A stretch of DNA of 44,544 nucleotides from Escherichia phage EC120. The stretch lies in sequence record ON185580.1; one strand, 5' to 3'. Of the stretch, positions 1 through 35,118 are shown one piece after another (within the stretch, counting starts at the first letter, position 1; every line of letters begins with the position of its first letter). The translations under genes were made by a program, and so were the position numbers. The notes under the pieces are model-generated. The model saw only the letters and a list, made by a program, of their open reading frames with translations, did not search any database and was not told where the DNA came from.

Positions 1-51
1 TCTGTTCGTTTCGTTCACTCCGCTTGCGCTACGTTCACTCGCTCACGTGTA

Positions 52-397
52 CCTTAGGCTATTCCTTTATGGATAGCTTAGGTTATAGCTTAGTGGCCTA
101 CCTTAGTTATAACCTTAGTGCATAGCTTAGTATCAGCTTAGTAGTGTACCTTAGTAAGTCTTAGTGTCTTCTCTTAGTGATTGCACATGCAAGCATGTAA
201 GATGCCATTAGGTCGCGGTCGGTAGACCGCTACAGAAGGAGAATAGTAATAAGATGCAGTAGGAGGAACACCAGAAACCTAGCCAACCTAGCCTATCCTA
301 GCTCTGTATCTATTGCTTTTCCTTAGTCTAACATGTGAGACAACCTATCTTATTCTTAGTGATGGTAACTTAGTGTTGACAAGATAATCTTAGTGTA
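52..397. repeat. Left-end array of short CTTAGT(G)/CTTAGG direct repeats (at least 13 copies)
   Basis: Motif CTTAG(T/G) recurs every 10-35 bp between about 52 and 397; the same motif recurs near the right end (44003-44485). Analogous to short repeat arrays next to T7 genome ends. Confidence 0.6.
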
Positions 398-404
398 ATA
401 CTAT
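376..404 (+). promoter_or_regulatory. Candidate host sigma70 early promoter
   Basis: TTGACA (376-381), 17-nt spacer, TACTAT (399-404); upstream of the first early ORFs, where T7-like phages carry host-RNAP promoters. Confidence 0.4.
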
Positions 405-505
405 GCATCACGTAGGCGGTGCTGAGGCACCTAGTAGCCAGCTAGTAAGGCGTACGAAGAGACTAGTGCCTACATTGTTCTTTAACAATTTGCTTAATGT
501 AGCCT

Positions 506-727
506 ATGTATGCCGTGGTTAACTACTTATTGAATGAGGTATTAACTATGACATTAAATAACCGTGAACTGTCCGTTCTCTTCACTCTGTTGTGCTACAT
601 GATTCGTAACAACGAATTACTTACAGATGATGAGTTAGCCTTGTATCACCGCTTTCTTAACGAAGGTTGGACCGATACAGTTAATCAATACCGTAACATG
701 ATAGATGAGTTGAGGGAGGGTAAATAA
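506..727 (+). CDS. Hypothetical early protein (73 aa; alternative RBS-supported start at 548)
   Basis: ORF in early region; GAGG-type RBS precedes the in-frame ATG at 548; stop overlaps next start (TAATG). Confidence 0.5.
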   Translation: MYAVVNYLLNEVLTMTLNNRELSVLFTLLCYMIRNNELLTDDELALYHRFLNEGWTDTVNQYRNMIDELREGK

Positions 728-951
728 TGTATCAACATGAGGTATTCTTTGAATCAGCTAGCGAAGCTATTCGCTTCCGTGATGATATGATGCAAGCTGG
801 TGTAGGCGTTAATGTGTATCACTATTTGATAGATTACGACACTGAATATCACCGAGTTACCTTAGTATCTGAGTATGACAACCAAGTCATTACTGAGTAT
901 CTAGGCAGTGAAGATTACGATTACGATGAAGTAATCACGACAAATCTCTAA
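727..951 (+). CDS. Hypothetical early protein (74 aa, acidic)
   Basis: ATG overlaps upstream stop; GGAGGG RBS 8 nt upstream. Confidence 0.6.
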   Translation: MYQHEVFFESASEAIRFRDDMMQAGVGVNVYHYLIDYDTEYHRVTLVSEYDNQVITEYLGSEDYDYDEVITTNL

Positions 952-1080
952 ATTAACTGTTGACAGCCACGGCATACAAGGTTACATTAAGCATCAAGAC
1001 GGCGACGTCTTTAAACATCCCGCTCTTTAACAATACGGTTTGTGTCTTGATAGGCTAACTAACTAACTAAGGTAATTATC

Positions 1081-1191
1081 ATGAAAGGGTTAATTTGTGT
1101 AGAACGTATGGTCAATGGTAAACTTGAAATATTACCACTGGAAAACCAATCTAGCTTCAAAGAGTGGTATGGCTGTTTCTCACTGATTTAA
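1081..1191 (+). CDS. Small hypothetical early protein (36 aa)
   Basis: ATG preceded by TAACTAACTAACTAAGG (stops in all frames plus RBS); below the track size cutoff. Confidence 0.3.
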   Translation: MKGLICVERMVNGKLEILPLENQSSFKEWYGCFSLI

Positions 1192-1342
1192 GGTAAAGGC
1201 TGGCACTAGTCAGCCTATCAAGGCGCAAACCAAGCTCTTTAACAATTTGGATGGTAGCTTCTTAGTCTGGATAGGTTAAACCTAGGAGATTCTCTTGAGT
1301 CTCCTATAATGTAACCTAACTAACTAAATGAGGATTAATAAC

Positions 1343-1696
1343 ATGGCTATGTCTAATATGACTTACTCTCAGGTTTACAACACCGCTCATGCTGCATTAG
1401 TTGAACGTATCTGGAATGATGCTATTGATTGTATTGATAACGCACATGATGCAATCCATGATGCGGCGGATAGTGCTGTACCAATCTATTATGCTGACAT
1501 CTTCTCCGTGATGGCGAGTGAAGGAATTGATCATTTCTTCGAAGACTCCGGCCTGATGCCAGACACTAAGGATGTAACCGTAGTATTGCAAGCCCGTATC
1601 TATGAGCAACTCACAATTGATCTATGGGAACGTGTTCAGTATATGATTGTTGAATACGTCAACTCCGCCGAATATTTAGAAGAAGAAGAGGAATAA
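1343..1696 (+). CDS. ocr: Ocr-like DNA-mimic anti-restriction protein (T7 gp0.3 homologue, 117 aa)
   Basis: Translation MAMSNMTY...[13 protein letters not shown]...[11 protein letters not shown]...[15 protein letters not shown]... with acidic C-terminus closely matches recalled T7 Ocr (same length). GAGGA RBS 8 nt before ATG 1343; track start 1328 is less likely. Confidence 0.85.
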
Positions 1697-1698
1697 GA

Positions 1699-1812
1699 AT
1701 GGAAAAGCTATACAACTTCATCTTTTCAGACGGTGTAACCCTGAAGTGTTCCCTACGATTCGCTCAGATTCGTGAGGAAGTGCTAGGTACTACATACAAA
1801 CTATTTAGCTGA
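1699..1812 (+). CDS. Small hypothetical early protein (37 aa)
   Basis: ATG 2 nt after ocr stop with GAGGA RBS; same position as T7 gene 0.4. Confidence 0.3.
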   Translation: MEKLYNFIFSDGVTLKCSLRFAQIREEVLGTTYKLFS

Positions 1813-1825
1813 CACTATAAGAGAA
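1803..1825 (+). promoter_or_regulatory. Variant phage-RNAP promoter-like sequence (ATTTAGCTGACACTATAAGAG)
   Basis: Matches the SP6-type promoter except A instead of G at the expected +1; may be weak or non-functional. Confidence 0.35.
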
Positions 1826-1888
1826 GTCTTAACAAGGCGTTGCTACGGTAGCGCCTGATTAAACTTTCACTTACTAGAGGTTAAAATT

Positions 1889-2014
1889 ATGAAACTATCG
1901 CCATCCGCTAAAGGCCTCATTGCAGAACTTAAAGACTCTTTGAGGAATCCAATCATTTGGGCACTTATCTACATACCTTATGGTATCTACCTATTTCACC
2001 TCATCACTGAGTAA
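1889..2014 (+). CDS. Small hydrophobic early protein (41 aa)
   Basis: GAGG RBS; predicted TM segment IIWALIYIPYGIYLFHLI. Confidence 0.3.
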   Translation: MKLSPSAKGLIAELKDSLRNPIIWALIYIPYGIYLFHLITE

Positions 2015-2048
2015 ATAGCCTATAGCCTACCTATGTGGGCTATGTGAT

Positions 2049-2071
2049 ATTTACTTACACTATAAGGTGAT
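2049..2071 (+). promoter_or_regulatory. Divergent phage promoter-like sequence (ATTTACTTACACTATAAGGTG)
   Basis: Shares the ATTTAC and CACTATA blocks but has altered spacing and TATAAG; low confidence. Confidence 0.25.
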
Positions 2072-2075
2072 TAAT

Positions 2076-2999
2076 ATGACTACTGAAAACATCCTTCTGT
2101 CTGTTCGTGAAGCTGCAACCGCTGAAATCAAGCAGCACTTAGACAATATCGGCACTTCTTACATCAAAGTTGGCGCTTGTCTGAATGAATTACGCGGTGA
2201 TTTCGAAGGTCAAAAAGACTTTTTAGCTTATGTAGAATCAGAGTTCGGCATCAAGAAAGCACAATGCTACAAGCTGATGAGTGTAGCCCGTGTCTTTGAA
2301 GGAGACGAACGCTTTAAAGGTGTGGCTATGCGTGTAATGCTGGCGCTTGTTCCTTTCGCTGATGAAAATATGATCATGGAGAAGGCCGCAGAACTCGCCG
2401 CAGAGGGCAAGCTGGACACTAACGCCGTAAACGCCCTGATTGATCCTAAGAAAGAGACAAAGGCCGAGACGGTACAACCTAAGGTTGAGTCGGTAAAACC
2501 GCAGGAGAACGCGACTGAGGCCGCAGAAACTATGCAAGGACATGCAACCTTTGAGGATTTCATATTAGAGAAGGCGAAAGAGGAGCTACAAAGTGTGCCG
2601 CCAGCAAGTGAGTCTGGTAACGACGAATCCGCACCGTGGGAAGACAAAAGCAAGCAGGAAGACACAAAGGCAGCGCCACGGGATAACACGGCTAACACCG
2701 AGAGTGCCGCTATTGCTGGCCTTCTGGCACAAATTAAAGCACTGACCGAGCAATTACAGGCAGCTAATGACCGCATTGCCTCCTTAAGCAGCACACGCGA
2801 AAGCAAGAAAGCAGCCGCGCCTATGCTGCCGCAATTCAAATCTTCCTGCTTCTATGCTCGCTTAGGTTTAAGCGCTGAGGAGGCAACGAAGAAGACAGCA
2901 GTTAACAAGGCACGCCGCGAACTGGTTAAGCTAGGCTACGGCGAAGGCCATGAAGCATGGCCCTTAATCTCTGAGGCAGTAGAAGAATTAACTAAGTAA
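2076..2999 (+). CDS. Early protein of unknown function (307 aa) directly upstream of RNAP
   Basis: AAGGTGA RBS 5 nt before ATG 2076 (track start 2067 is GTG). Globular N-terminal region, low-complexity K/E/T/A-rich linker, conserved-looking C-terminal 60 aa. Occupies the T7 gene 0.7 position but has no recognisable kinase motifs. Confidence 0.7.
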   Translation: MTTENILLSVREAATAEIKQHLDNIGTSYIKVGACLNELRGDFEGQKDFLAYVESEFGIKKAQCYKLMSVARVFEGDERFKGVAMRVMLALVPFADENMIMEKAAELAAEGKLDTNAVNALIDPKKETKAETVQPKVESVKPQENATEAAETMQGHATFEDFILEKAKEELQSVPPASESGNDESAPWEDKSKQEDTKAAPRDNTANTESAAIAGLLAQIKALTEQLQAANDRIASLSSTRESKKAAAPMLPQFKSSCFYARLGLSAEEATKKTAVNKARRELVKLGYGEGHEAWPLISEAVEELTK

Positions 3000-3062
3000 C
3001 CTTATCGGTGGCATCTTCTTAGGTGTCACCTATTAAGGTTTCTTTCACTAGGAGTAAACAAG

Positions 3063-5690
3063 ATGCAAGACCTACACGCTATTCAACTTCAACTTGAAGA
3101 AGAAATGTTTAACGGCGGTATCCGTCGCTTTGAAGCGGACCAACAACGCCAGATTGCATCCGGTAATGAATCAGACACGGCATGGAATCGCCGCTTATTG
3201 TCCGAGTTAATCGCGCCAATGGCTGAAGGTATTCAGGCATACAAGGAAGAGTATGAAGGTAAAAGAGGCCGTGCACCGCGTGCATTAGCTTTCATTAACT
3301 GCGTAGAAAACGAAGTGGCAGCATATATCACGATGAAAATCGTTATGGATATGCTGAACACGGATGTAACTTTGCAGGCTATAGCCATGAATGTAGCTGA
3401 CCGCATTGAGGACCAAGTACGTTTTAGCAAGCTGGAAGGTCACGCCGCCAAATACTTTGAGAAAGTTAAGAAGTCACTTAAGGCAAGTAAGACTAAATCA
3501 TATCGCCATGCGCACAACGTAGCGGTCGTGGCTGAGAAGTCAGTAGCTGACCGTGACGCTGATTTCTCTCGCTGGGAGGCGTGGCCTAAAGATACCTTGC
3601 TACAAATTGGTATGACCTTGCTAGAAATACTGGAAAATAGTGTATTCTTCAATGGTCAGCCTGTCTTTCTTCGCACCTTGCGCACTAATGGTGGCAAGCA
3701 TGGCGTTTACTACTTACAGACTAGCGAACACGTGGGTGAATGGATAACTGCATTTAAAGAGCACGTAGCTCAGCTGAGTCCAGCCTATGCGCCTTGCGTT
3801 ATTCCTCCTCGTCCGTGGGTTTCTCCGTTTAATGGTGGCTTCCATACTGAGAAAGTAGCAAGCCGTATTCGTCTAGTAAAAGGCAATCGTGAGCACGTCC
3901 GCAAGCTGACCAAAAAGCAAATGCCAGCGGTTTACAAGGCTGTTAACGCTTTGCAGGCGACTAAGTGGCAGGTTAATAAAGAGGTTTTGCAGGTAGTAGA
4001 GGACGTTATCCGTCTCGACCTTGGTTATGGTGTGCCTTCCTTTAAACCACTCATCGACCGTGAGAACAAGCCAGCTAATCCAGTGCCGTTAGAGTTCCAG
4101 CACCTGCGAGGCCGTGAATTGAAAGAGATGCTAACACCGGAGCAATGGCAGGCCTTCATCAACTGGAAGGGTGAATGTACTAAGCTGTATACCGCTGAGA
4201 CTAAGCGCGGCAGCAAGTCGGCGGCGACCGTCCGCATGGTAGGACAGGCCCGTAAATACAGCCAGTTTGACGCTATTTATTTTGTATATGCACTGGATAG
4301 CCGTTCACGCGTTTATGCGCAATCTAGCACGCTCTCGCCGCAATCAAACGACTTAGGCAAGGCATTGCTCCGTTTTACCGAAGGGCAGCGTCTTGATAGC
4401 GCTGAGGCGCTTAAGTGGTTTTTGGTGAACGGGGCGAATAACTGGGGTTGGGATAAGAAAACTTTTGACGTGCGCACCTCTAACGTGCTGGATGGCGAAT
4501 TTCAAGACATGTGCCGCGACATTGCAGCCGATCCGCTGACCTTCACTCAATGGGTAAATGCTGATTCCCCTTACGGCTTCCTTGCATGGTGCTTTGAATA
4601 TGCGCGTTATCTGGATGCACTGGATGAAGGCACGCAAGACCAATTCATGACGCACCTACCCGTCCATCAAGACGGTAGTTGCTCTGGTATCCAGCACTAT
4701 AGCGCGATGTTACGCGATGAAGTAGGTGCGAAAGCAGTAAACCTTAAGCCTTCTGACTTCCCTCAAGATATTTATGGCGCGGTTGCGCAGGTTGTTATCC
4801 AGAAGAATTACGCCTACATGAATGCAGACGATGCAGAGACTTTCACATCTGGAAGCGTCACACTTACAGGTGCAGAACTGCGTAGCATGGCTAGTGCGTG
4901 GGATATGATAGGAATCACTCGCGGATTGACCAAAAAGCCCGTAATGACACTACCTTATGGCAGCACACGTCTAACCTGCCGTGAATCAGTGATTGATTAT
5001 ATCGTTGATTTGGAAGAAAAAGAGGCCCAACGAGCTATTGCGGAAGGGCGTACCGCCAATCCTGTACATCCTTTTGATAATGACCGTAAGGACAGCCTGA
5101 CACCTAGTGCAGCTTATAACTATATGACGGCTTTAATCTGGCCTTCTATTTCGGAAGTGGTTAAAGCTCCTATAGTGGCAATGAAAATGATTCGTCAGCT
5201 TGCCCGTTTCGCAGCTAAAAGGAATGAAGGCTTAGAGTATACCTTGCCTACTGGCTTCATCTTGCAACAAAAGATTATGGCTACTGATATGCTCCGCGTA
5301 TCCACTTGCCTGATGGGAGAAATCAAGATGAGTCTACAGATTGAAACGGACGTAGTGGATGAAACGGCTATGATGGGCGCTGCTGCTCCTAACTTTGTGC
5401 ATGGTCATGATGCCAGTCACCTTATCTTAACAGTCTGCGACCTTGTTGATAAAGGGATTACATCTATCGCAGTCATTCATGATTCTTTCGGTACTCACGC
5501 AGGCCGTACAGCCGATCTTCGTGATAGCTTAAGGGCAGAAATGGTGAAGATGTATCAAGGCCGTAATGCCCTGCAAAGCCTGTTAGATGAGCATGAAGAA
5601 CGCTGGTTAGTAGACACCGGAATCCAAGTGCCAGAGCAAGGAGAGTTTGACCTTAACGAAATCTTAGTATCTGACTATTGCTTCGCATAA
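3063..5690 (+). CDS. Single-subunit DNA-dependent RNA polymerase (SP6-type)
   Basis: 875 aa; N-terminus [32 protein letters not shown] and C-terminus ...[10 protein letters not shown]...FA align by recall with SP6 RNAP; catalytic [14 protein letters not shown] and VIHDSFGTH motifs present. Confidence 0.97.
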
Positions 5691-5991: not shown

Positions 5992-6016
5992 ACTAACTTA
6001 CTTTGGAGATTTAACC

Positions 6017-6145
6017 ATGCGTAACTTTGAGAAGATGACCCGTAAAGCTAACCGTTTTGACATGGAAGAAGGGCAGAAGAAAGGCAAGAAGCTGAATAAA
6101 CCTGTCCGTGACCGTGCATCTAAACGCGCTGCGTGGGAGTTCTAA
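6017..6145 (+). CDS. Small basic protein, T7 gp1.1-like (42 aa)
   Basis: MRNFEKMTRKANR...KLNKPVRDRASKRAAWEF resembles recalled T7 gp1.1 (MRNFEKMT...KLNK..RDR..KR); below track cutoff. Confidence 0.5.
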   Translation: MRNFEKMTRKANRFDMEEGQKKGKKLNKPVRDRASKRAAWEF

Positions 6146-6148
6146 GTT

Positions 6149-8137
6149 ATGGCTATTATTCAGAATGTACCGTGTCCTGCCTGTCAAAAGAATGGACATG
6201 ATATTACTGGCAACCATCTTATGATATTTGAGGATGGCGCTGGTTACTGTAACCGTGGTCACTTCCATGATAATGGGAAGCCTTATTACCATAAGCCAGA
6301 GGGTGGTATCGAGATAACCGAATTGCCTATTACTGGCAATATCAAATATACACCTTCTCAATTCAAAGAAATGGAGAAGGAAGGGAAGATAAGCGACCCT
6401 AAGCTACGCGCCATCGCTCTTGGTGGTATGCGTATGAAAGACCGTTGGGAGGTCATGAATGAGCAAGAAAGGGCAGACCAAGAAGCAGAGTGGAAACTTG
6501 ATGTTGAATGGTTCCTCACGCTTAAGCGTAAGAACCTTGTTTCCAGACACATTCGCGGCGACATTTGCGCATTGTATGATGTACGTGTCGGACACGATGA
6601 AGAGGGTAGAGTCTCGCGGCATTACTATCCACGCTTCGAGAAAGGTGAGCTAGTAGGAGCTAAGTGTCGCACATTACCTAAAGATTTTAAGTTTGGTCAT
6701 TTAGGTAAACTCTTTGGTATGCAAGATCTTTTCGGTATGAATACTTTGTCTCACGTGTTAGACAAGGGGAGACGAAAGGATTGCTTGCTTATTGTAGGCG
6801 GTGAACTTGATGCACTAGCAGCGCAGCAGATGCTCCTTGATTCTGCCAAAGGTACTAAGTGGGAAGGACAACCATATCATGTGTGGTCTGTCAACAAGGG
6901 CGAGTCTTGCCTTGAAGAGATAGTGCAGAACCGTGAGCATATCGCCCAATTCAAGAAGATTATATGGGGTTTTGATGGAGATGAGGTAGGGCAGAAGCAG
7001 AATCAGCAAGCGGCTCGCCTGTTTCCTGGCAAATCCTATATCCTTGAATACCCCTCTGGTTGCAAAGATGCTAACAAGGCATTGATGGCTGGCAAGGCCA
7101 AAGAGTTTGTTGATGCATGGTTTAATGCCAAGTCATCTGATGAAGTCTTTGGTAGCCAGATTAAATCTATCGCATCTCAAAGGGATAAGCTCAAGGCTGC
7201 ACGTCCAGAGCAAGGACTATCATGGCCTTGGCCTAAGCTGAACAAGGTAACGCTAGGTATTCGTAAGAACCAACTTATCATTGTAGGCGCAGGCTCTGGT
7301 GTAGGTAAGACTGAGTTCCTTCGTGAAGTAGTTAAGCACCTCATTGAAGAACACGGTGAATCTGTAGGCATCATTTCTACAGAAGACCCGATGGTCAAGG
7401 TGTCCCGTGCTTTTATCGGCAAGTGGATTGATAAGCGTATTGAGTTACCGCCAACCAACGACCCGAAAGAAGATGGATACCGTGAGGTGTTCGACTACAC
7501 CGAGGAAGAAGCCAATGCTGCCATTGATTATGTAGCGGATACAGGGAAGCTGTTTGTGGCTGACCTAGAGGGTGACTATTCGATGGAGAAGGTAGAGCAG
7601 ACTTGCCTTGAGTTTGAGGCTATGGGTATTTCTAATATCATCATTGATAACTTAACGGGGATTAAATTAGATGAGCGTGCTTTTGGTGGGAAGGTTGGTG
7701 CACTTGATGAATGCGTCAAGCGGATTGGTACTATCAAAGACCGACACCCGGTTACTATATTCCTTGTATCGCACCTTACACGTCCTCCGGCAAACCGTAC
7801 CCAACACGAAGAAGGTGGCGAGGTTATCCTTTCTGACTTCCGAGGCTCAGGAGCTATCGGATTCTGGGCATCTTACGCCTTGGGGATTGAGCGTAACACA
7901 AGAGCTGAAACGCTTGATGAAAGAACTACCACGTACATCTCATGTGTCAAAGACCGCGACCAAGGTATCTGGACTGGAACCAAGGTCATGCTTAAGGGTG
8001 ACATTCAAACCGGACGTTTAATGGAACCACAAGCCCGTACTAAGTCATTTGATACAGGTGAAGCAAGGCAACAAGAAGTACCAGATTTACCGGACACTAT
8101 AGAAGAGACTAACTTCGATGAAGAAAGTGAGTTCTGA
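6149..8137 (+). CDS. DNA primase/helicase (T7 gp4-like)
   Basis: N-terminal Cys4 zinc-binding motif (CPACQ...C..GHFHD), Walker A GAGSGVGKTEF, acidic C-terminus ending EESEF. Confidence 0.93.
   Translation: MAIIQNVPCPACQKNGHDITGNHLMIFEDGAGYCNRGHFHDNGKPYYHKPEGGIEITELPITGNIKYTPSQFKEMEKEGKISDPKLRAIALGGMRMKDRWEVMNEQERADQEAEWKLDVEWFLTLKRKNLVSRHIRGDICALYDVRVGHDEEGRVSRHYYPRFEKGELVGAKCRTLPKDFKFGHLGKLFGMQDLFGMNTLSHVLDKGRRKDCLLIVGGELDALAAQQMLLDSAKGTKWEGQPYHVWSVNKGESCLEEIVQNREHIAQFKKIIWGFDGDEVGQKQNQQAARLFPGKSYILEYPSGCKDANKALMAGKAKEFVDAWFNAKSSDEVFGSQIKSIASQRDKLKAARPEQGLSWPWPKLNKVTLGIRKNQLIIVGAGSGVGKTEFLREVVKHLIEEHGESVGIISTEDPMVKVSRAFIGKWIDKRIELPPTNDPKEDGYREVFDYTEEEANAAIDYVADTGKLFVADLEGDYSMEKVEQTCLEFEAMGISNIIIDNLTGIKLDERAFGGKVGALDECVKRIGTIKDRHPVTIFLVSHLTRPPANRTQHEEGGEVILSDFRGSGAIGFWASYALGIERNTRAETLDERTTTYISCVKDRDQGIWTGTKVMLKGDIQTGRLMEPQARTKSFDTGEARQQEVPDLPDTIEETNFDEESEF
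8085..8107 (+). promoter_or_regulatory. Phage-RNAP promoter embedded in 3' end of primase-helicase gene
   Basis: ATTTACCGGACACTATAGAAGAG; expected +1 G at 8102. Confidence 0.6.
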
Positions 8138-17409: not shown

Positions 17410-17913
17410 ATGTCACACTATGAATGTAAGAAGTGTCATAAGCGTTATGATTACTGTACTTGTGGTCAAGAGAAAACATCTTTTAAAGTTGGAGACAAGG
17501 TATTTCGTAATGAAAAAGATTCTATTCCTTGGAATCAATTCTGCAAAGAAGCTGGTATTGACCCTGATAGCCCTGTAACCATAGATGATATTGATGGCAT
17601 TAACTTGTGCTTTCGTGAGGTGAGGGGTATAGGTTGGGATTCCAAAAAATTCAAACTTGCATCTGATAAGTTAGACAACAATATGGTAACTCAGCCTAAG
17701 CACTACGAGTTCTTTGATGGTGTAGAGGCAATCACTATCATTGCCCGCAGTATGACTGAAAAGCAATTCGCGGGGTACTGCATGGGTAATGCCCTTAAGT
17801 ATCGCCTGCGTGCAGGTAAGAAGTTCAATACTGAAGAAGACTTGAAGAAGGCAGATTATTATAAAGAGTTATTCCAGAAGCATCGTCACGAATGTATTGA
17901 TGAGGATATTTAA
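17410..17913 (+). CDS. Hypothetical protein with N-terminal Cys cluster (167 aa)
   Basis: GGAGGA RBS then ATG 17410; N-terminus CKKCHKRYDYCTCG; C-terminal GNALKYRLRAGKK motif of unknown function. Confidence 0.65.
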   Translation: MSHYECKKCHKRYDYCTCGQEKTSFKVGDKVFRNEKDSIPWNQFCKEAGIDPDSPVTIDDIDGINLCFREVRGIGWDSKKFKLASDKLDNNMVTQPKHYEFFDGVEAITIIARSMTEKQFAGYCMGNALKYRLRAGKKFNTEEDLKKADYYKELFQKHRHECIDEDI

Positions 17914-33800: not shown

Positions 33801-34156
33801 ATTTGGAAGAGAAGTTATCGCCTAAAGGGTTGGCCTTTGGTGCAATGGGTATGATGAGTACAACTGCTGTATTTAGTCTAGGTGGAGATTTCTTAGGTGG
33901 CCTAGGTGTTCTACCTTCTGAGTTAGTACAATCCCGTTATGAGGCTGGCTTTCAGACTAAGGGTTTGATAGACCAAATACCACTAGTAGGTGTTGGTCAA
34001 GATGCATATCGTTTAGCAGATTCTATAACTAAATACGCAGAGGGTGATACAGAAGGTGTAGATGTGGCACGTAGGGCTTTACGCTTAGTGCCTCTAGCTA
34101 ATGTAATAGGAATCCAGAACGCATTGCGTTATGGCTTAGATGAACTGGAGGATTAA
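30848..34156 (+). CDS. Large internal virion (ejection) protein (gp16-like)
   Basis: 1102 aa; GGAGGA RBS; last and largest of the internal virion protein genes. Confidence 0.75.
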   Translation: MEQDIKTNWAGYVQSTPEPFSIEAAPVSAPTIRQRNELQEQVLEAKADADILGAVGAAFQNEWLAFGGKRWYDRATADFTPQPDFEIQPEQREALRFKYGTDMMQTITEGVRSEDELNFRIQNADEDLERNKRIAQAGWVGSVATIGAAVLDPVGWVASIPTGGAAKVGLVGRAVRSAIAAGVSNAAIESILVQGDMTRDLDDIMVALGSGMAMGGVIGAVARGRATKLSEQGDDRAASIVRSADAGDRYVRAVADDSIGAMRVKGEEVLTEGAFDISSKGEGLLKTLQREGNAIDMTPRRWAGTLSALGTVVHSSQDASVRGLGARLFESPQGLGMQKASASLMQNTNLNRLKSADMNRFNDGFDLWLKENNINPVAGHTNSHYVQQYNEKVWEAVRIGMDESTPKSIRMAAEGQQAMYREALALRQRSGESGFEKVKADDKYMPDIFDSMKARRQFSMHDKEDIIELFSRAYQNGSRKVPKEVADDIARAQVNRVADATLTGQLSFEKAMSGQTKAEYEALMRKAGFSDEEIEKMVEALDNKETRDNISNRAKMSLGLDVTQEYNGIRMRDFMNTNVEELTDNYMKEAAGGAALARQGFSTYQAALNAIDLVERNARNAAKDTKAHAQFEAESAKIRQSEPDYKKAQEKIEELKKRLKLKEKDEAAGLAIDEEIRQMREGLRLIMGKSIDSNPQDLSTKMLRRGRDITGVLRLGQMGFAQLGELANFMGEFGIAATTMALGKQFRFTSKALRNGDGFFRDKNLAEVERMVGYIGEDNWLTTKGARPDEFGDVTTVRGMMAHFDQSMNSIRRAQTNLSLFRMAQGSLERMTNRQIALSFIDHLEGKKIIPQKKLEELGLTQEFMTNLQKHYDANSKGSGLLGFDTMPYAMGETLANAIRRKSGLIIQRNFIGDEGIWMNKALGKTFAQLKSFSLVSGEKQFGRGIRHDKIGLAKKTAYGFALGSIVYAAKAYVNSIGREDQDEYLEEKLSPKGLAFGAMGMMSTTAVFSLGGDFLGGLGVLPSELVQSRYEAGFQTKGLIDQIPLVGVGQDAYRLADSITKYAEGDTEGVDVARRALRLVPLANVIGIQNALRYGLDELED

Positions 34157-35118
34157 TGAGTTATACTTTCACAGAACATATAGCCAACGGTACGCAAGTA
34201 ACCTATCCCTTTAGCTTTGCTGGTAGGGATAAAGGTTATCTTCGTGCCTCAGATGTGATAGTGGAGTCTCTTCAAGGTAACACTTGGATTGAGGTTACAT
34301 CTGGCTGGCAACTAACTGGCACGCACCAGATTACTTTTGATGTAGCACCAGTTGCAGGTTTGAAGTTCCGTATTAGAAGGGAAGTACAAAAGGAGTATCC
34401 ATACGCTGAGTTTGACCGTGGTGTTACCTTGGATATGAAGTCTTTAAATGGTTCTTTCATTCATATACTGGAGATTACACAGGAGTTACTTGACGGGTTT
34501 TATCCAGAAGGATACTTCATTAAACAGAATGTAAGCTGGGGCGGCAATAAGATTACTGATTTGGCTGATGGCACAAATCCGGGAGATGCAGTAAATAAAG
34601 GGCAGCTTGATGCCATCGACAAGAAGCATACAGATTGGAACGCCAAACAGGACATTGAGATTGCTGGCCTTAAGGCTGGTATGACTTCTGGTATTGCGCA
34701 CAGAACTGTTCCTTGGTACACGATAGCCCAAGGTGGTGAGATTTCCGTAAAACCACCTTATGAATTTCAAGATGCACTAGTTTTCCTTAATGGGGTGTTG
34801 CAGCACCAAATTGTAGGCGCATACTCTATAAGCAACAACACTATCACTTTCGCAGAGCCGCTTGTGGCTGGTACAGAGGTGTATGTGCTGATTGGTAGTC
34901 GTGTGGCTACATCTGAACCTAATATTCAGTTAGAGTTGAACTTTGACTTAGTAGAAGGCCAACAAGTAGTACAGATTGGCTCTGCATTTAAGTACATTGA
35001 GGTCTACCTTGATGGATTATTACAACCTAAACTTGCTTATCAGGTAGACGGTGACATTGTTACTTTCTCAGAGGGAGTGCCAGAATGCCGGATGACTGCT
35101 AAGATTATCACAGCATAA
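34156..35118 (+). CDS. Tail-fibre/tailspike adaptor protein (T7 gp17 N-terminal domain-like)
   Basis: N-terminus TYPFSFAGRDKGYLRASDVIVESL...FRIRREV resembles the tail-attachment domain of T7 gp17; no long fibre shaft. Confidence 0.65.
   Translation: MSYTFTEHIANGTQVTYPFSFAGRDKGYLRASDVIVESLQGNTWIEVTSGWQLTGTHQITFDVAPVAGLKFRIRREVQKEYPYAEFDRGVTLDMKSLNGSFIHILEITQELLDGFYPEGYFIKQNVSWGGNKITDLADGTNPGDAVNKGQLDAIDKKHTDWNAKQDIEIAGLKAGMTSGIAHRTVPWYTIAQGGEISVKPPYEFQDALVFLNGVLQHQIVGAYSISNNTITFAEPLVAGTEVYVLIGSRVATSEPNIQLELNFDLVEGQQVVQIGSAFKYIEVYLDGLLQPKLAYQVDGDIVTFSEGVPECRMTAKIITA

Follow-up and report, generated by a model that had tools for sequence, protein, structure and literature searches.

Escherichia phage EC120 (ON185580.1) carries, ahead of its RNA polymerase (RNAP) gene, an open reading frame that resembles gene 0.3 (ocr) of phage T7, whose DNA-mimic product disarms restriction and BREX defenses of bacteria; the rest of its genome resembles that of phage SP6. 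The locus raised two questions: whether the gene is a functional ocr, and whether its presence in an SP6-type phage reflects exchange with T7-like phages. We analyzed the whole 44,544-nt stretch of DNA, referred to as the window, and all EC120 positions given here are positions in it.

The ocr gene (gene 0.3 homologue; 1343–1696, + strand, stop included) runs from ATG at 1343 to TAA at 1694–1696 and encodes 117 aa. Its allele is of the K1E type, also called type A here. A Shine–Dalgarno sequence, GAGGA, was read from the sequence at 1330–1334 (+), 8 nt before the ATG. ATG 1343 was preferred as the start because of this GAGGA and because the product then begins as T7 gp0.3 does (MAMSNMTY...); the first 24 nt of the gene are the same as those of the T7 gene at 23 positions. 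An in-frame ATG at 1328, used as the start in the mechanically made ORF list, was disfavored on these grounds.

The product scored 142.2 bits with the Pfam family PF08684 ("DNA mimic ocr"), whose cut-off is 25 bits; the match (E = 8.5e-42) spans positions 1–97 of the 101-position profile. In the alignment with T7 gp0.3 (PDB 1s7z), residues 1–117 paired with residues 1–117 without gaps at 66% identity (E = 8e-41). Both matches are far above chance. The original prediction of a near-collinear T7 Ocr homologue was borne out by the family match, by the alignment, which was significant over the full length, and by the fold match described below. Identity was uneven along the protein. It was 89% in residues 1–9, 45% in residues 10–42 (helix A and loop 1), 87% in residues 43–96, a block that includes the dimerization residues and the acidic 60–77 segment, and 33% in the C-terminal tail (residues 97–117).

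The 3D structure of EC120 Ocr was modeled using AlphaFold with a 60-sequence homologue alignment, giving a pLDDT of 87.8 and a pTM of 0.81. The alignment was needed for a confident model, as the single-sequence model had a pLDDT of 51.6 and was unusable. Helices were modeled at residues 8–25, 35–45, 50–58, 65–68, and 76–115. A Foldseek search of the PDB returned T7 Ocr chains as its top eight matches (TM 0.73–0.85, probability 1.00); they were unbound or in complex with BrxX/PglX, PARIS AriA, a type I methyltransferase, or RNAP. No significant non-Ocr match was found in this search, the ninth match having E > 3. EC120 Ocr is thus predicted to adopt the all-helical Ocr fold.

EC120 Ocr contains 24 Asp/Glu and 4 Lys/Arg, with a net charge of −20 and a pI of 3.65. 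E88 was invariant in the 5-, 17-, and 60-sequence Ocr alignments. The acidic residue at this position constrains loop 2 (Kanwar 2016). Segment 60–77, presumed to be loop 2, keeps six of the seven acidic residues that T7 Ocr has there. Ocr activity has been reported to require 14 or more acidic residues, a pI no higher than 4.5, and an acidic side chain at residue 88 (Kanwar 2016, PMC4872106); EC120 Ocr has 24, 3.65, and E88, respectively. F54 and A58, residues of the dimer interface, were invariant in 17 Ocr homologues, and an F54D/A58E mutant of Ocr is dimerization-defective (PMC7261183). The dN/dS of EC120 ocr against the K1E copy was 0.07, indicating that ocr is under purifying selection.

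Taking homology, fold, charge, key residues, and position together, we put at about 0.92 the probability that the 1343–1696 ORF encodes a working Ocr, orthologous to the product of T7 gene 0.3. By homology, EC120 Ocr would be expected to bind and inhibit type I restriction–modification (R-M) enzymes and the BREX protein PglX/BrxX.

The genome around the gene is SP6-type (Molineuxvirinae, genus Vectrevirus), in agreement with what had been claimed before. The EC120 RNAP (875 aa, 3063–5690) is 86% identical to SP6 RNAP and 32% identical to T7 RNAP. SP6-type promoters, TTAC(T/C)GGACACTATAG and variants, occur 11 times on the + strand against 0.16 expected. A separate 320-aa adaptor protein (34156–35118) contains only the N-terminal (adaptor) domain of the T7 tail fibre by Pfam, and two tailspike-like proteins at the right end carry a Peptidase_S74 chaperone domain and a beta-helix domain. 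The nearest genomes were those of the Vectrevirus phages LI10P3, EEc4, 6949, LI10P5, and 6948, with about 97% identity over 98–99% of the first 25 kb.

The RNAP gene and the first SP6-type phage promoter (1805–1824, +) are both downstream of ocr; this promoter is 109 nt after the ocr stop and ends the region open to host RNAP only. Because of this position, ocr would be read by host RNAP. Two sigma-70-like early promoter candidates precede it. The candidate at 376–404 (+; TTGACA, 17 nt, TACTAT; 10 of 12 consensus matches) is conserved in K1-5 and Mt1B1_P10. The one nearest to ocr, at 960–988 (+; TTGACA, 17 nt, TACATT; 10 of 12 matches), is near-identical in four aligned Vectrevirus genomes, in a stretch that is 100% identical to K1-5 and 85–88% identical to the other two. 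The number of sigma-70-like sites in 1–3100 was not above chance in a scan against shuffles, and position and conservation are what suggest that the two candidates function as promoters.

A boxA-like motif, CTCTTTAACAA, is present at 1235–1245 (+), some 100 nt ahead of ocr, and two other copies, at 478–488 and 1023–1033 (+), each follow a sigma-70-like promoter. The motif had six matches in the window against 1.27 expected, with three of the six in the early region, and T7 has it at the equivalent position, about 110 nt upstream of gene 0.3. The EC120 motifs resemble the rrn and T7 boxA, and phage T145P2 has an extra copy within a 158-nt insertion. Between the last boxA and the ribosome-binding site is a long imperfect leader hairpin (1258–1333, +) with a minimum free energy of −32.1 kcal/mol (z = −3.97); none of 200 shuffles folded as well. 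The T7 leader forms a similar hairpin where its R0.3 RNase III site lies. The EC120 hairpin occupies the same position as that site and may likewise be processed by RNase III.

These features suggest a course of events in which ocr would be among the first genes to enter the cell. Host RNA polymerase would start at the sigma-70-type early promoters and reach ocr by way of a T7-like leader with boxA and hairpin. The 117-aa product would probably dimerize through the conserved F54/A58 interface and would shield the unmodified phage genome during cell entry. Dimerization, target binding, promoter use, and cleavage by RNase III are all predicted here from likeness to T7 and from the sequence.

The original prediction treated the occurrence of Ocr in an SP6-type genome as remarkable. 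This premise did not survive, as EC120 ocr is already known as a standard annotated gene of SP6/K1E-like phages. SP6 gp5 and K1-5 gp3 are "ocr-like anti-restriction" genes in RefSeq and occupy the same position, before a gene for a ~300-aa protein and the RNAP gene. SP6 Gp5, when expressed, fully inhibited Salmonella BREX (Went et al. 2024, PMC11341690). A gene identical to EC120 ocr is annotated as "protein Ocr" in OL362272. The nucleotide sequence of EC120 ocr is also 100% identical to those of 6948 and LI10P5, whose genomes are only about 97% identical to that of EC120. The Ocr of the Vectrevirus phages Sem1-4 is described as identical to that of phage 6949 (2026 paper, PMC13005862).

The K1E-type allele was found in at least 45 Vectrevirus records at 88–100% nucleotide identity, including K1E, LL11, AAPEc6, and ACG-C91. 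The 45 type A records and the 24 with at least 90% identity to the K1-5 type add up to about the number of records (67) in which 80% or more of the first 25 kb is covered. One ocr allele or the other thus appears to be present in practically all Vectrevirus phages. Ocr homologues were also present in Zindervirus SE29, in Acadevirus PM85 and MidiMira, and in an unclassified Klebsiella phage of Molineuxvirinae; tblastn matches to Ocr amounted to about 570 phage records in total. Since Ocr in an SP6-type genome is the rule, its presence is in itself no sign of exchange.

Signs of exchange came from comparisons of identity. No other substantial protein is nearly as well conserved between EC120 and T7 as Ocr. 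Ocr identity to T7 was 71% over 100 aa and 66% over the full length, whereas identities were 32% for RNAP, 25% for primase/helicase, 35% for DNA polymerase, 31% for portal, 20% for capsid, 35% for large terminase, and 27% for tail tube B. Compared with SP6, Ocr (61–64% identical) was more diverged than RNAP (86%).

Two ocr alleles occur within Vectrevirus. Type A (MAMSNMTY...) is carried by EC120 and K1E, and type B (MERNANAYY...) by K1-5, Mt1B1_P10, and T145P2; the two are 47% identical. When EC120 was aligned with K1-5, the 795 nt upstream of ocr (548–1342) had 99.3–100% nucleotide identity, ocr (1343–1675) had 55.7%, and the next ORF downstream (1699–1812) had 94%. The identity broke at the ocr start and resumed at the GAA/GAG poly-Glu tail of ocr, indicating that the replaced unit was exactly the ORF. 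The ocr leader is Vectrevirus-specific and common to both alleles. A blastn comparison of the EC120 window with T7 found no similarity in leader or flanks beyond the ocr ORF; only the short boxA motif was shared. Exchange of a whole module with T7 was dropped for this reason.

An Ocr tree was built by bootstrapped neighbor joining from 17 proteins and 100 columns. Ocrs of Molineuxvirinae fell in five places, each beside a Studiervirinae partner from a related host. SE29 (Zindervirus) paired with STP-SP7 (Kayfunavirus; 92% identity, bootstrap 100, Salmonella), F5M1D (unclassified) with KN1-1 (Przondovirus; 88%, bootstrap 98, Klebsiella), and PM85 (Acadevirus) with Lilpapawes (Minipunavirus; 53%, bootstrap 99, Proteus/Morganella). 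The K1-5 type of Vectrevirus grouped with K1F and IME278 of Kayfunavirus (83–84%, bootstrap 96 for the clade, E. coli K1/Enterobacter). EC120/K1E, SP6, and MidiMira grouped with T7, AP10, and Rambo (63–78%, bootstrap 74 for the clade, mixed enterobacteria). The tree was incongruent with subfamily taxonomy and grouped the proteins by host genus. Caveats are the small size of the tree in taxa and columns and the bootstrap of only 74 for the T7-type clade. Chimeric-looking Ocrs such as those of SE29 and STP-SP7 can also distort a single-gene tree of this kind.

Synonymous divergence pointed the same way. It was unsaturated in three cross-subfamily pairs, with a dS of 0.95 for SP6 and T7, 0.80 for F5M1D and KN1-1, and 0.57 for SE29 and STP-SP7. 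For comparison, dS was 0.54 for EC120 and K1E, within one genus, and 0.88 for T7 and AP10, of different genera in the same subfamily. Cross-subfamily values of 0.57–0.95 cannot be reconciled with inheritance from a common ancestor, given that the core proteins have since diverged to 20–35% identity. The original prediction of mosaic exchange of an early anti-defense module therefore stood in one part only: exchange was supported by the identity contrast (66–71% against 20–35%), the allele swap, and the tree, but what was exchanged was the ORF and not a module, because the leader and the neighboring genes are Vectrevirus-specific.

For the EC120 allele itself, synonymous sites were saturated against T7, AP10, SP6, and MidiMira (pS 0.77–0.82), so no recent T7-to-SP6-like transfer is shown. 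The allele formed the deepest branch of the T7-type Ocr clade, and no closer donor was found among the about 570 Ocr-bearing records. Any transfer behind the presence of this lineage in Vectrevirus, whichever way it ran, would have been ancient. The EC120 ocr lineage belongs to a T7-type Ocr clade common to both Autographiviridae subfamilies, and within Vectrevirus the K1E-type allele and the type B allele substitute for each other as ORF-exact cassettes.

Another possible history is vertical inheritance alone: the phage from which the T7-like and SP6-like lineages descend would already have had Ocr, which strong purifying selection then kept in place, with no exchange. Both subfamilies do have the same layout, with sigma-70 or sigma-70-like promoter sites, boxA, and a hairpin, and with ocr before the RNAP gene; the saturated synonymous sites fit a very old divergence, and the low dN/dS of ocr also agrees. 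This history does not, however, account for an Ocr so much closer to that of T7 than the seven core proteins are, or for one that has diverged further from its SP6 counterpart than RNAP has. It is also at odds with 47%-identical alleles between flanks of 99–100% (upstream) and 94% (downstream) in one genus, with the five tree places of Molineuxvirinae Ocrs (bootstrap 96–100 for four of the groupings), and with three cross-subfamily pairs whose dS values are like those of within-genus pairs. Congruence of the Ocr phylogeny with phage taxonomy is what the tree points away from, in a small sample, and we regard purely vertical descent as very unlikely. The opposite extreme is that EC120 or its immediate ancestors took ocr from a co-infecting Teseptimavirus. 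The allele does lie inside the T7-type clade, its best partners beyond Vectrevirus are AP10 and T7 (70–72% over residues 1–100), and its first 24 nt nearly coincide with those of T7. Yet its overall nucleotide identity to T7 is only 66–71%, with synonymous saturation, and the flanks have no T7 similarity beyond boxA in blastn. Moreover, the sharing of the allele by at least 45 Vectrevirus records makes it a long-standing resident of the genus, and no Studiervirinae ocr with more than 90% identity and a dS below 0.5 was present among the Ocr-bearing records. Such a recent import is extremely improbable.

A further alternative concerns function rather than history. The low-charge K1E-type allele might have a target spectrum other than that of T7 Ocr, for example weaker inhibition of type I R-M, a main action on host RNAP or BREX, or escape from systems that sense Ocr, such as PARIS. 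Twelve of the 34 acidic positions of T7 Ocr are gone from EC120 Ocr, mostly in residues 10–42 and 97–117. Divergence is concentrated in these surface regions, and affinity or target spectrum could differ. EC120 Ocr has the fewest acidic residues among the 60 family members sampled (24, range 24–39), against a mean of 32.5 for members not of the K1E type. In addition, two alleles are kept in one genus, suggesting diversifying or balancing selection, and one Salmonella PARIS system was triggered by neither SP6 Gp5 nor T7 Ocr (PMC11341690), indicating that sensing depends on the pairing of system and Ocr. On the other side, EC120 Ocr lies within every tested functional limit (acidic count, pI, and E88), Ocr can do without about half of its acidic residues (Roberts 2012, PMC3439906; Kanwar 2016, PMC4872106), and other family members also reach net charges of −19 to −22. 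A functional shift is therefore judged unlikely, and a conventional Ocr orthologue is the reading that we retain for EC120. For the family as a whole, we propose, tentatively and with considerable doubt, that ocr circulates as an ORF-exact cassette among T7-like and SP6-like phages of one host genus, and that the low-charge K1E-type and the K1F-like K1-5-type alleles are balanced in Vectrevirus because they differ in the defenses that they block or leave untriggered (type I R-M, BREX, and PARIS).

EC120 Ocr was compared with named systems. It shares with T7 gp0.3 the PF08684 match, the length of 117 aa, a gapless alignment, the predicted fold, F54, A58, and E88, and an acidic C-terminal tail, as well as the early position behind sigma-70 promoters (candidates in EC120), boxA, and a leader hairpin. 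They differ in charge, T7 Ocr having 34 acidic residues and a net charge of −28 against 24 and −20, and in setting, as EC120 Ocr sits in an SP6-type genome whose core proteins are 20–35% identical to those of T7. Structures of T7 Ocr include 1s7z and the complexes 2y7c, 7eew, 6r9b, 8q56, 8zek, 9ex7, and 8v45. SP6 Gp5 (NP_853565.1, Zindervirus) is an Ocr homologue at the same position in the same subfamily, but it is only 61–64% identical to EC120 Ocr, has the full 34 acidic residues, and is closer to T7 Ocr (77–78%, dS 0.95) than to the EC120 allele. The type A Ocrs of K1E, 6948, LI10P5, and Sem1-4 are of EC120's allele, with no difference of substance; nucleotide identity is 100% to 6948 and LI10P5 and 89–99% to at least 45 records. 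Type B, represented by K1-5 gp3 and K1F gp0.3, belongs to the same family and in Vectrevirus has the same slot, leader, and downstream gene. It differs from EC120 Ocr in its 47% identity, its 110-aa length, its MERNANAYY... N-terminus, and its short tail, and the K1-5 type is 83–84% identical to Kayfunavirus Ocr (K1F and IME278). Two functional analogues act on the same defense. ArdA of conjugative elements is an acidic DNA-mimic inhibitor of type I R-M that is unrelated to Ocr in sequence and fold. The T3 gp0.3 SAMase occupies the same gene slot and defeats type I R-M by degrading S-adenosylmethionine rather than by DNA mimicry; its sequence and fold are also unrelated.

For EC120, the result is a routine annotation: a Vectrevirus with its expected Ocr gene. 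It matters when K1E-like coliphages are selected for therapy against hosts that carry type I R-M or BREX. The ocr allele swap is a modest extension of known early-region mosaicism and not a new kind of system. Allele dimorphism and host-structured exchange concern the Ocr family rather than EC120 and are the only points of mild interest. The allele swap and the host-genus pairs (dS down to 0.57) could guide work on matching DNA-mimic variants to host defenses, and the same pattern is relevant to abortive-infection systems that sense Ocr.

Other small early ORFs were also variable. In sister Vectrevirus phages, unrelated ORFs stand in place of those at 1081–1191 (+, 36 aa) and 1889–2014 (+, 41 aa): one of 54 aa in T145P2 and Mt1B1_P10, one of ~62 aa in K1-5 and Mt1B1_P10, and one of 75 aa in phage 6948. 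These swaps assort independently of the ocr allele, indicating that the early region is pieced together from ORF-sized cassettes, with conserved intergenic stretches in between. The Ocrs of SE29 (301–648 of the locus examined) and STP-SP7 (163–543 of the locus examined), 92% identical despite different subfamilies, look chimeric, with a type B N-terminus (MERNANAYY) joined to a type-A-like C-terminal half (EQLTIDMW...IVDEYLE).

Several other loci in the window were recorded. A 310-aa early protein (2067–2999, +) has counterparts in SP6 gp7 and K1-5 gp6 and gave no match in a Pfam search; its slot is that of the gp0.7 kinase in T7. Indels are frequent in its acidic middle region, where EC120 has an insertion of 39 nt. 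A gp1.1 homologue (6017–6145, +; PF08200) is unusually T7-like, with 56% identity over 41 aa, and a 167-aa protein (17410–17913, +) has a DUF3310 C-terminal part that is 64% identical to T7 gp1.7 over 73 aa. The left end (1–400, +) contains many short repeats with CTTAGT(G), upstream of the first sigma-70-like promoter.

Among the homologues, Ocr also varied in length, setting, and label. An Ocr homologue with 54% identity and a PF08684 match was found at 6001–6342 of a 106,559-bp contig (Logan SRR14739082_2836), amid many small genes. This contig also has a T7 gp1.1-like gene, and no close relative of it was found in the phage collection. It suggests that Ocr also exists outside genomes of 38–46 kb, the size range of Autographiviridae. 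The gp0.3 of K1F (301–810 of the locus examined) is 169 aa long with a C-terminal extension of ~55 aa, and the phiA1122 homologue is 140 aa long with an additional PF27024 domain. In several GenBank records, among them OR424384.1, MK134560.1, and OQ729742.1, the Ocr gene is labeled "protein kinase" or "receptor binding protein kinase". A T7 0.3–0.7 fusion (deletion H1) has been described (PMC7261183), and these kinase labels were probably carried over from it.
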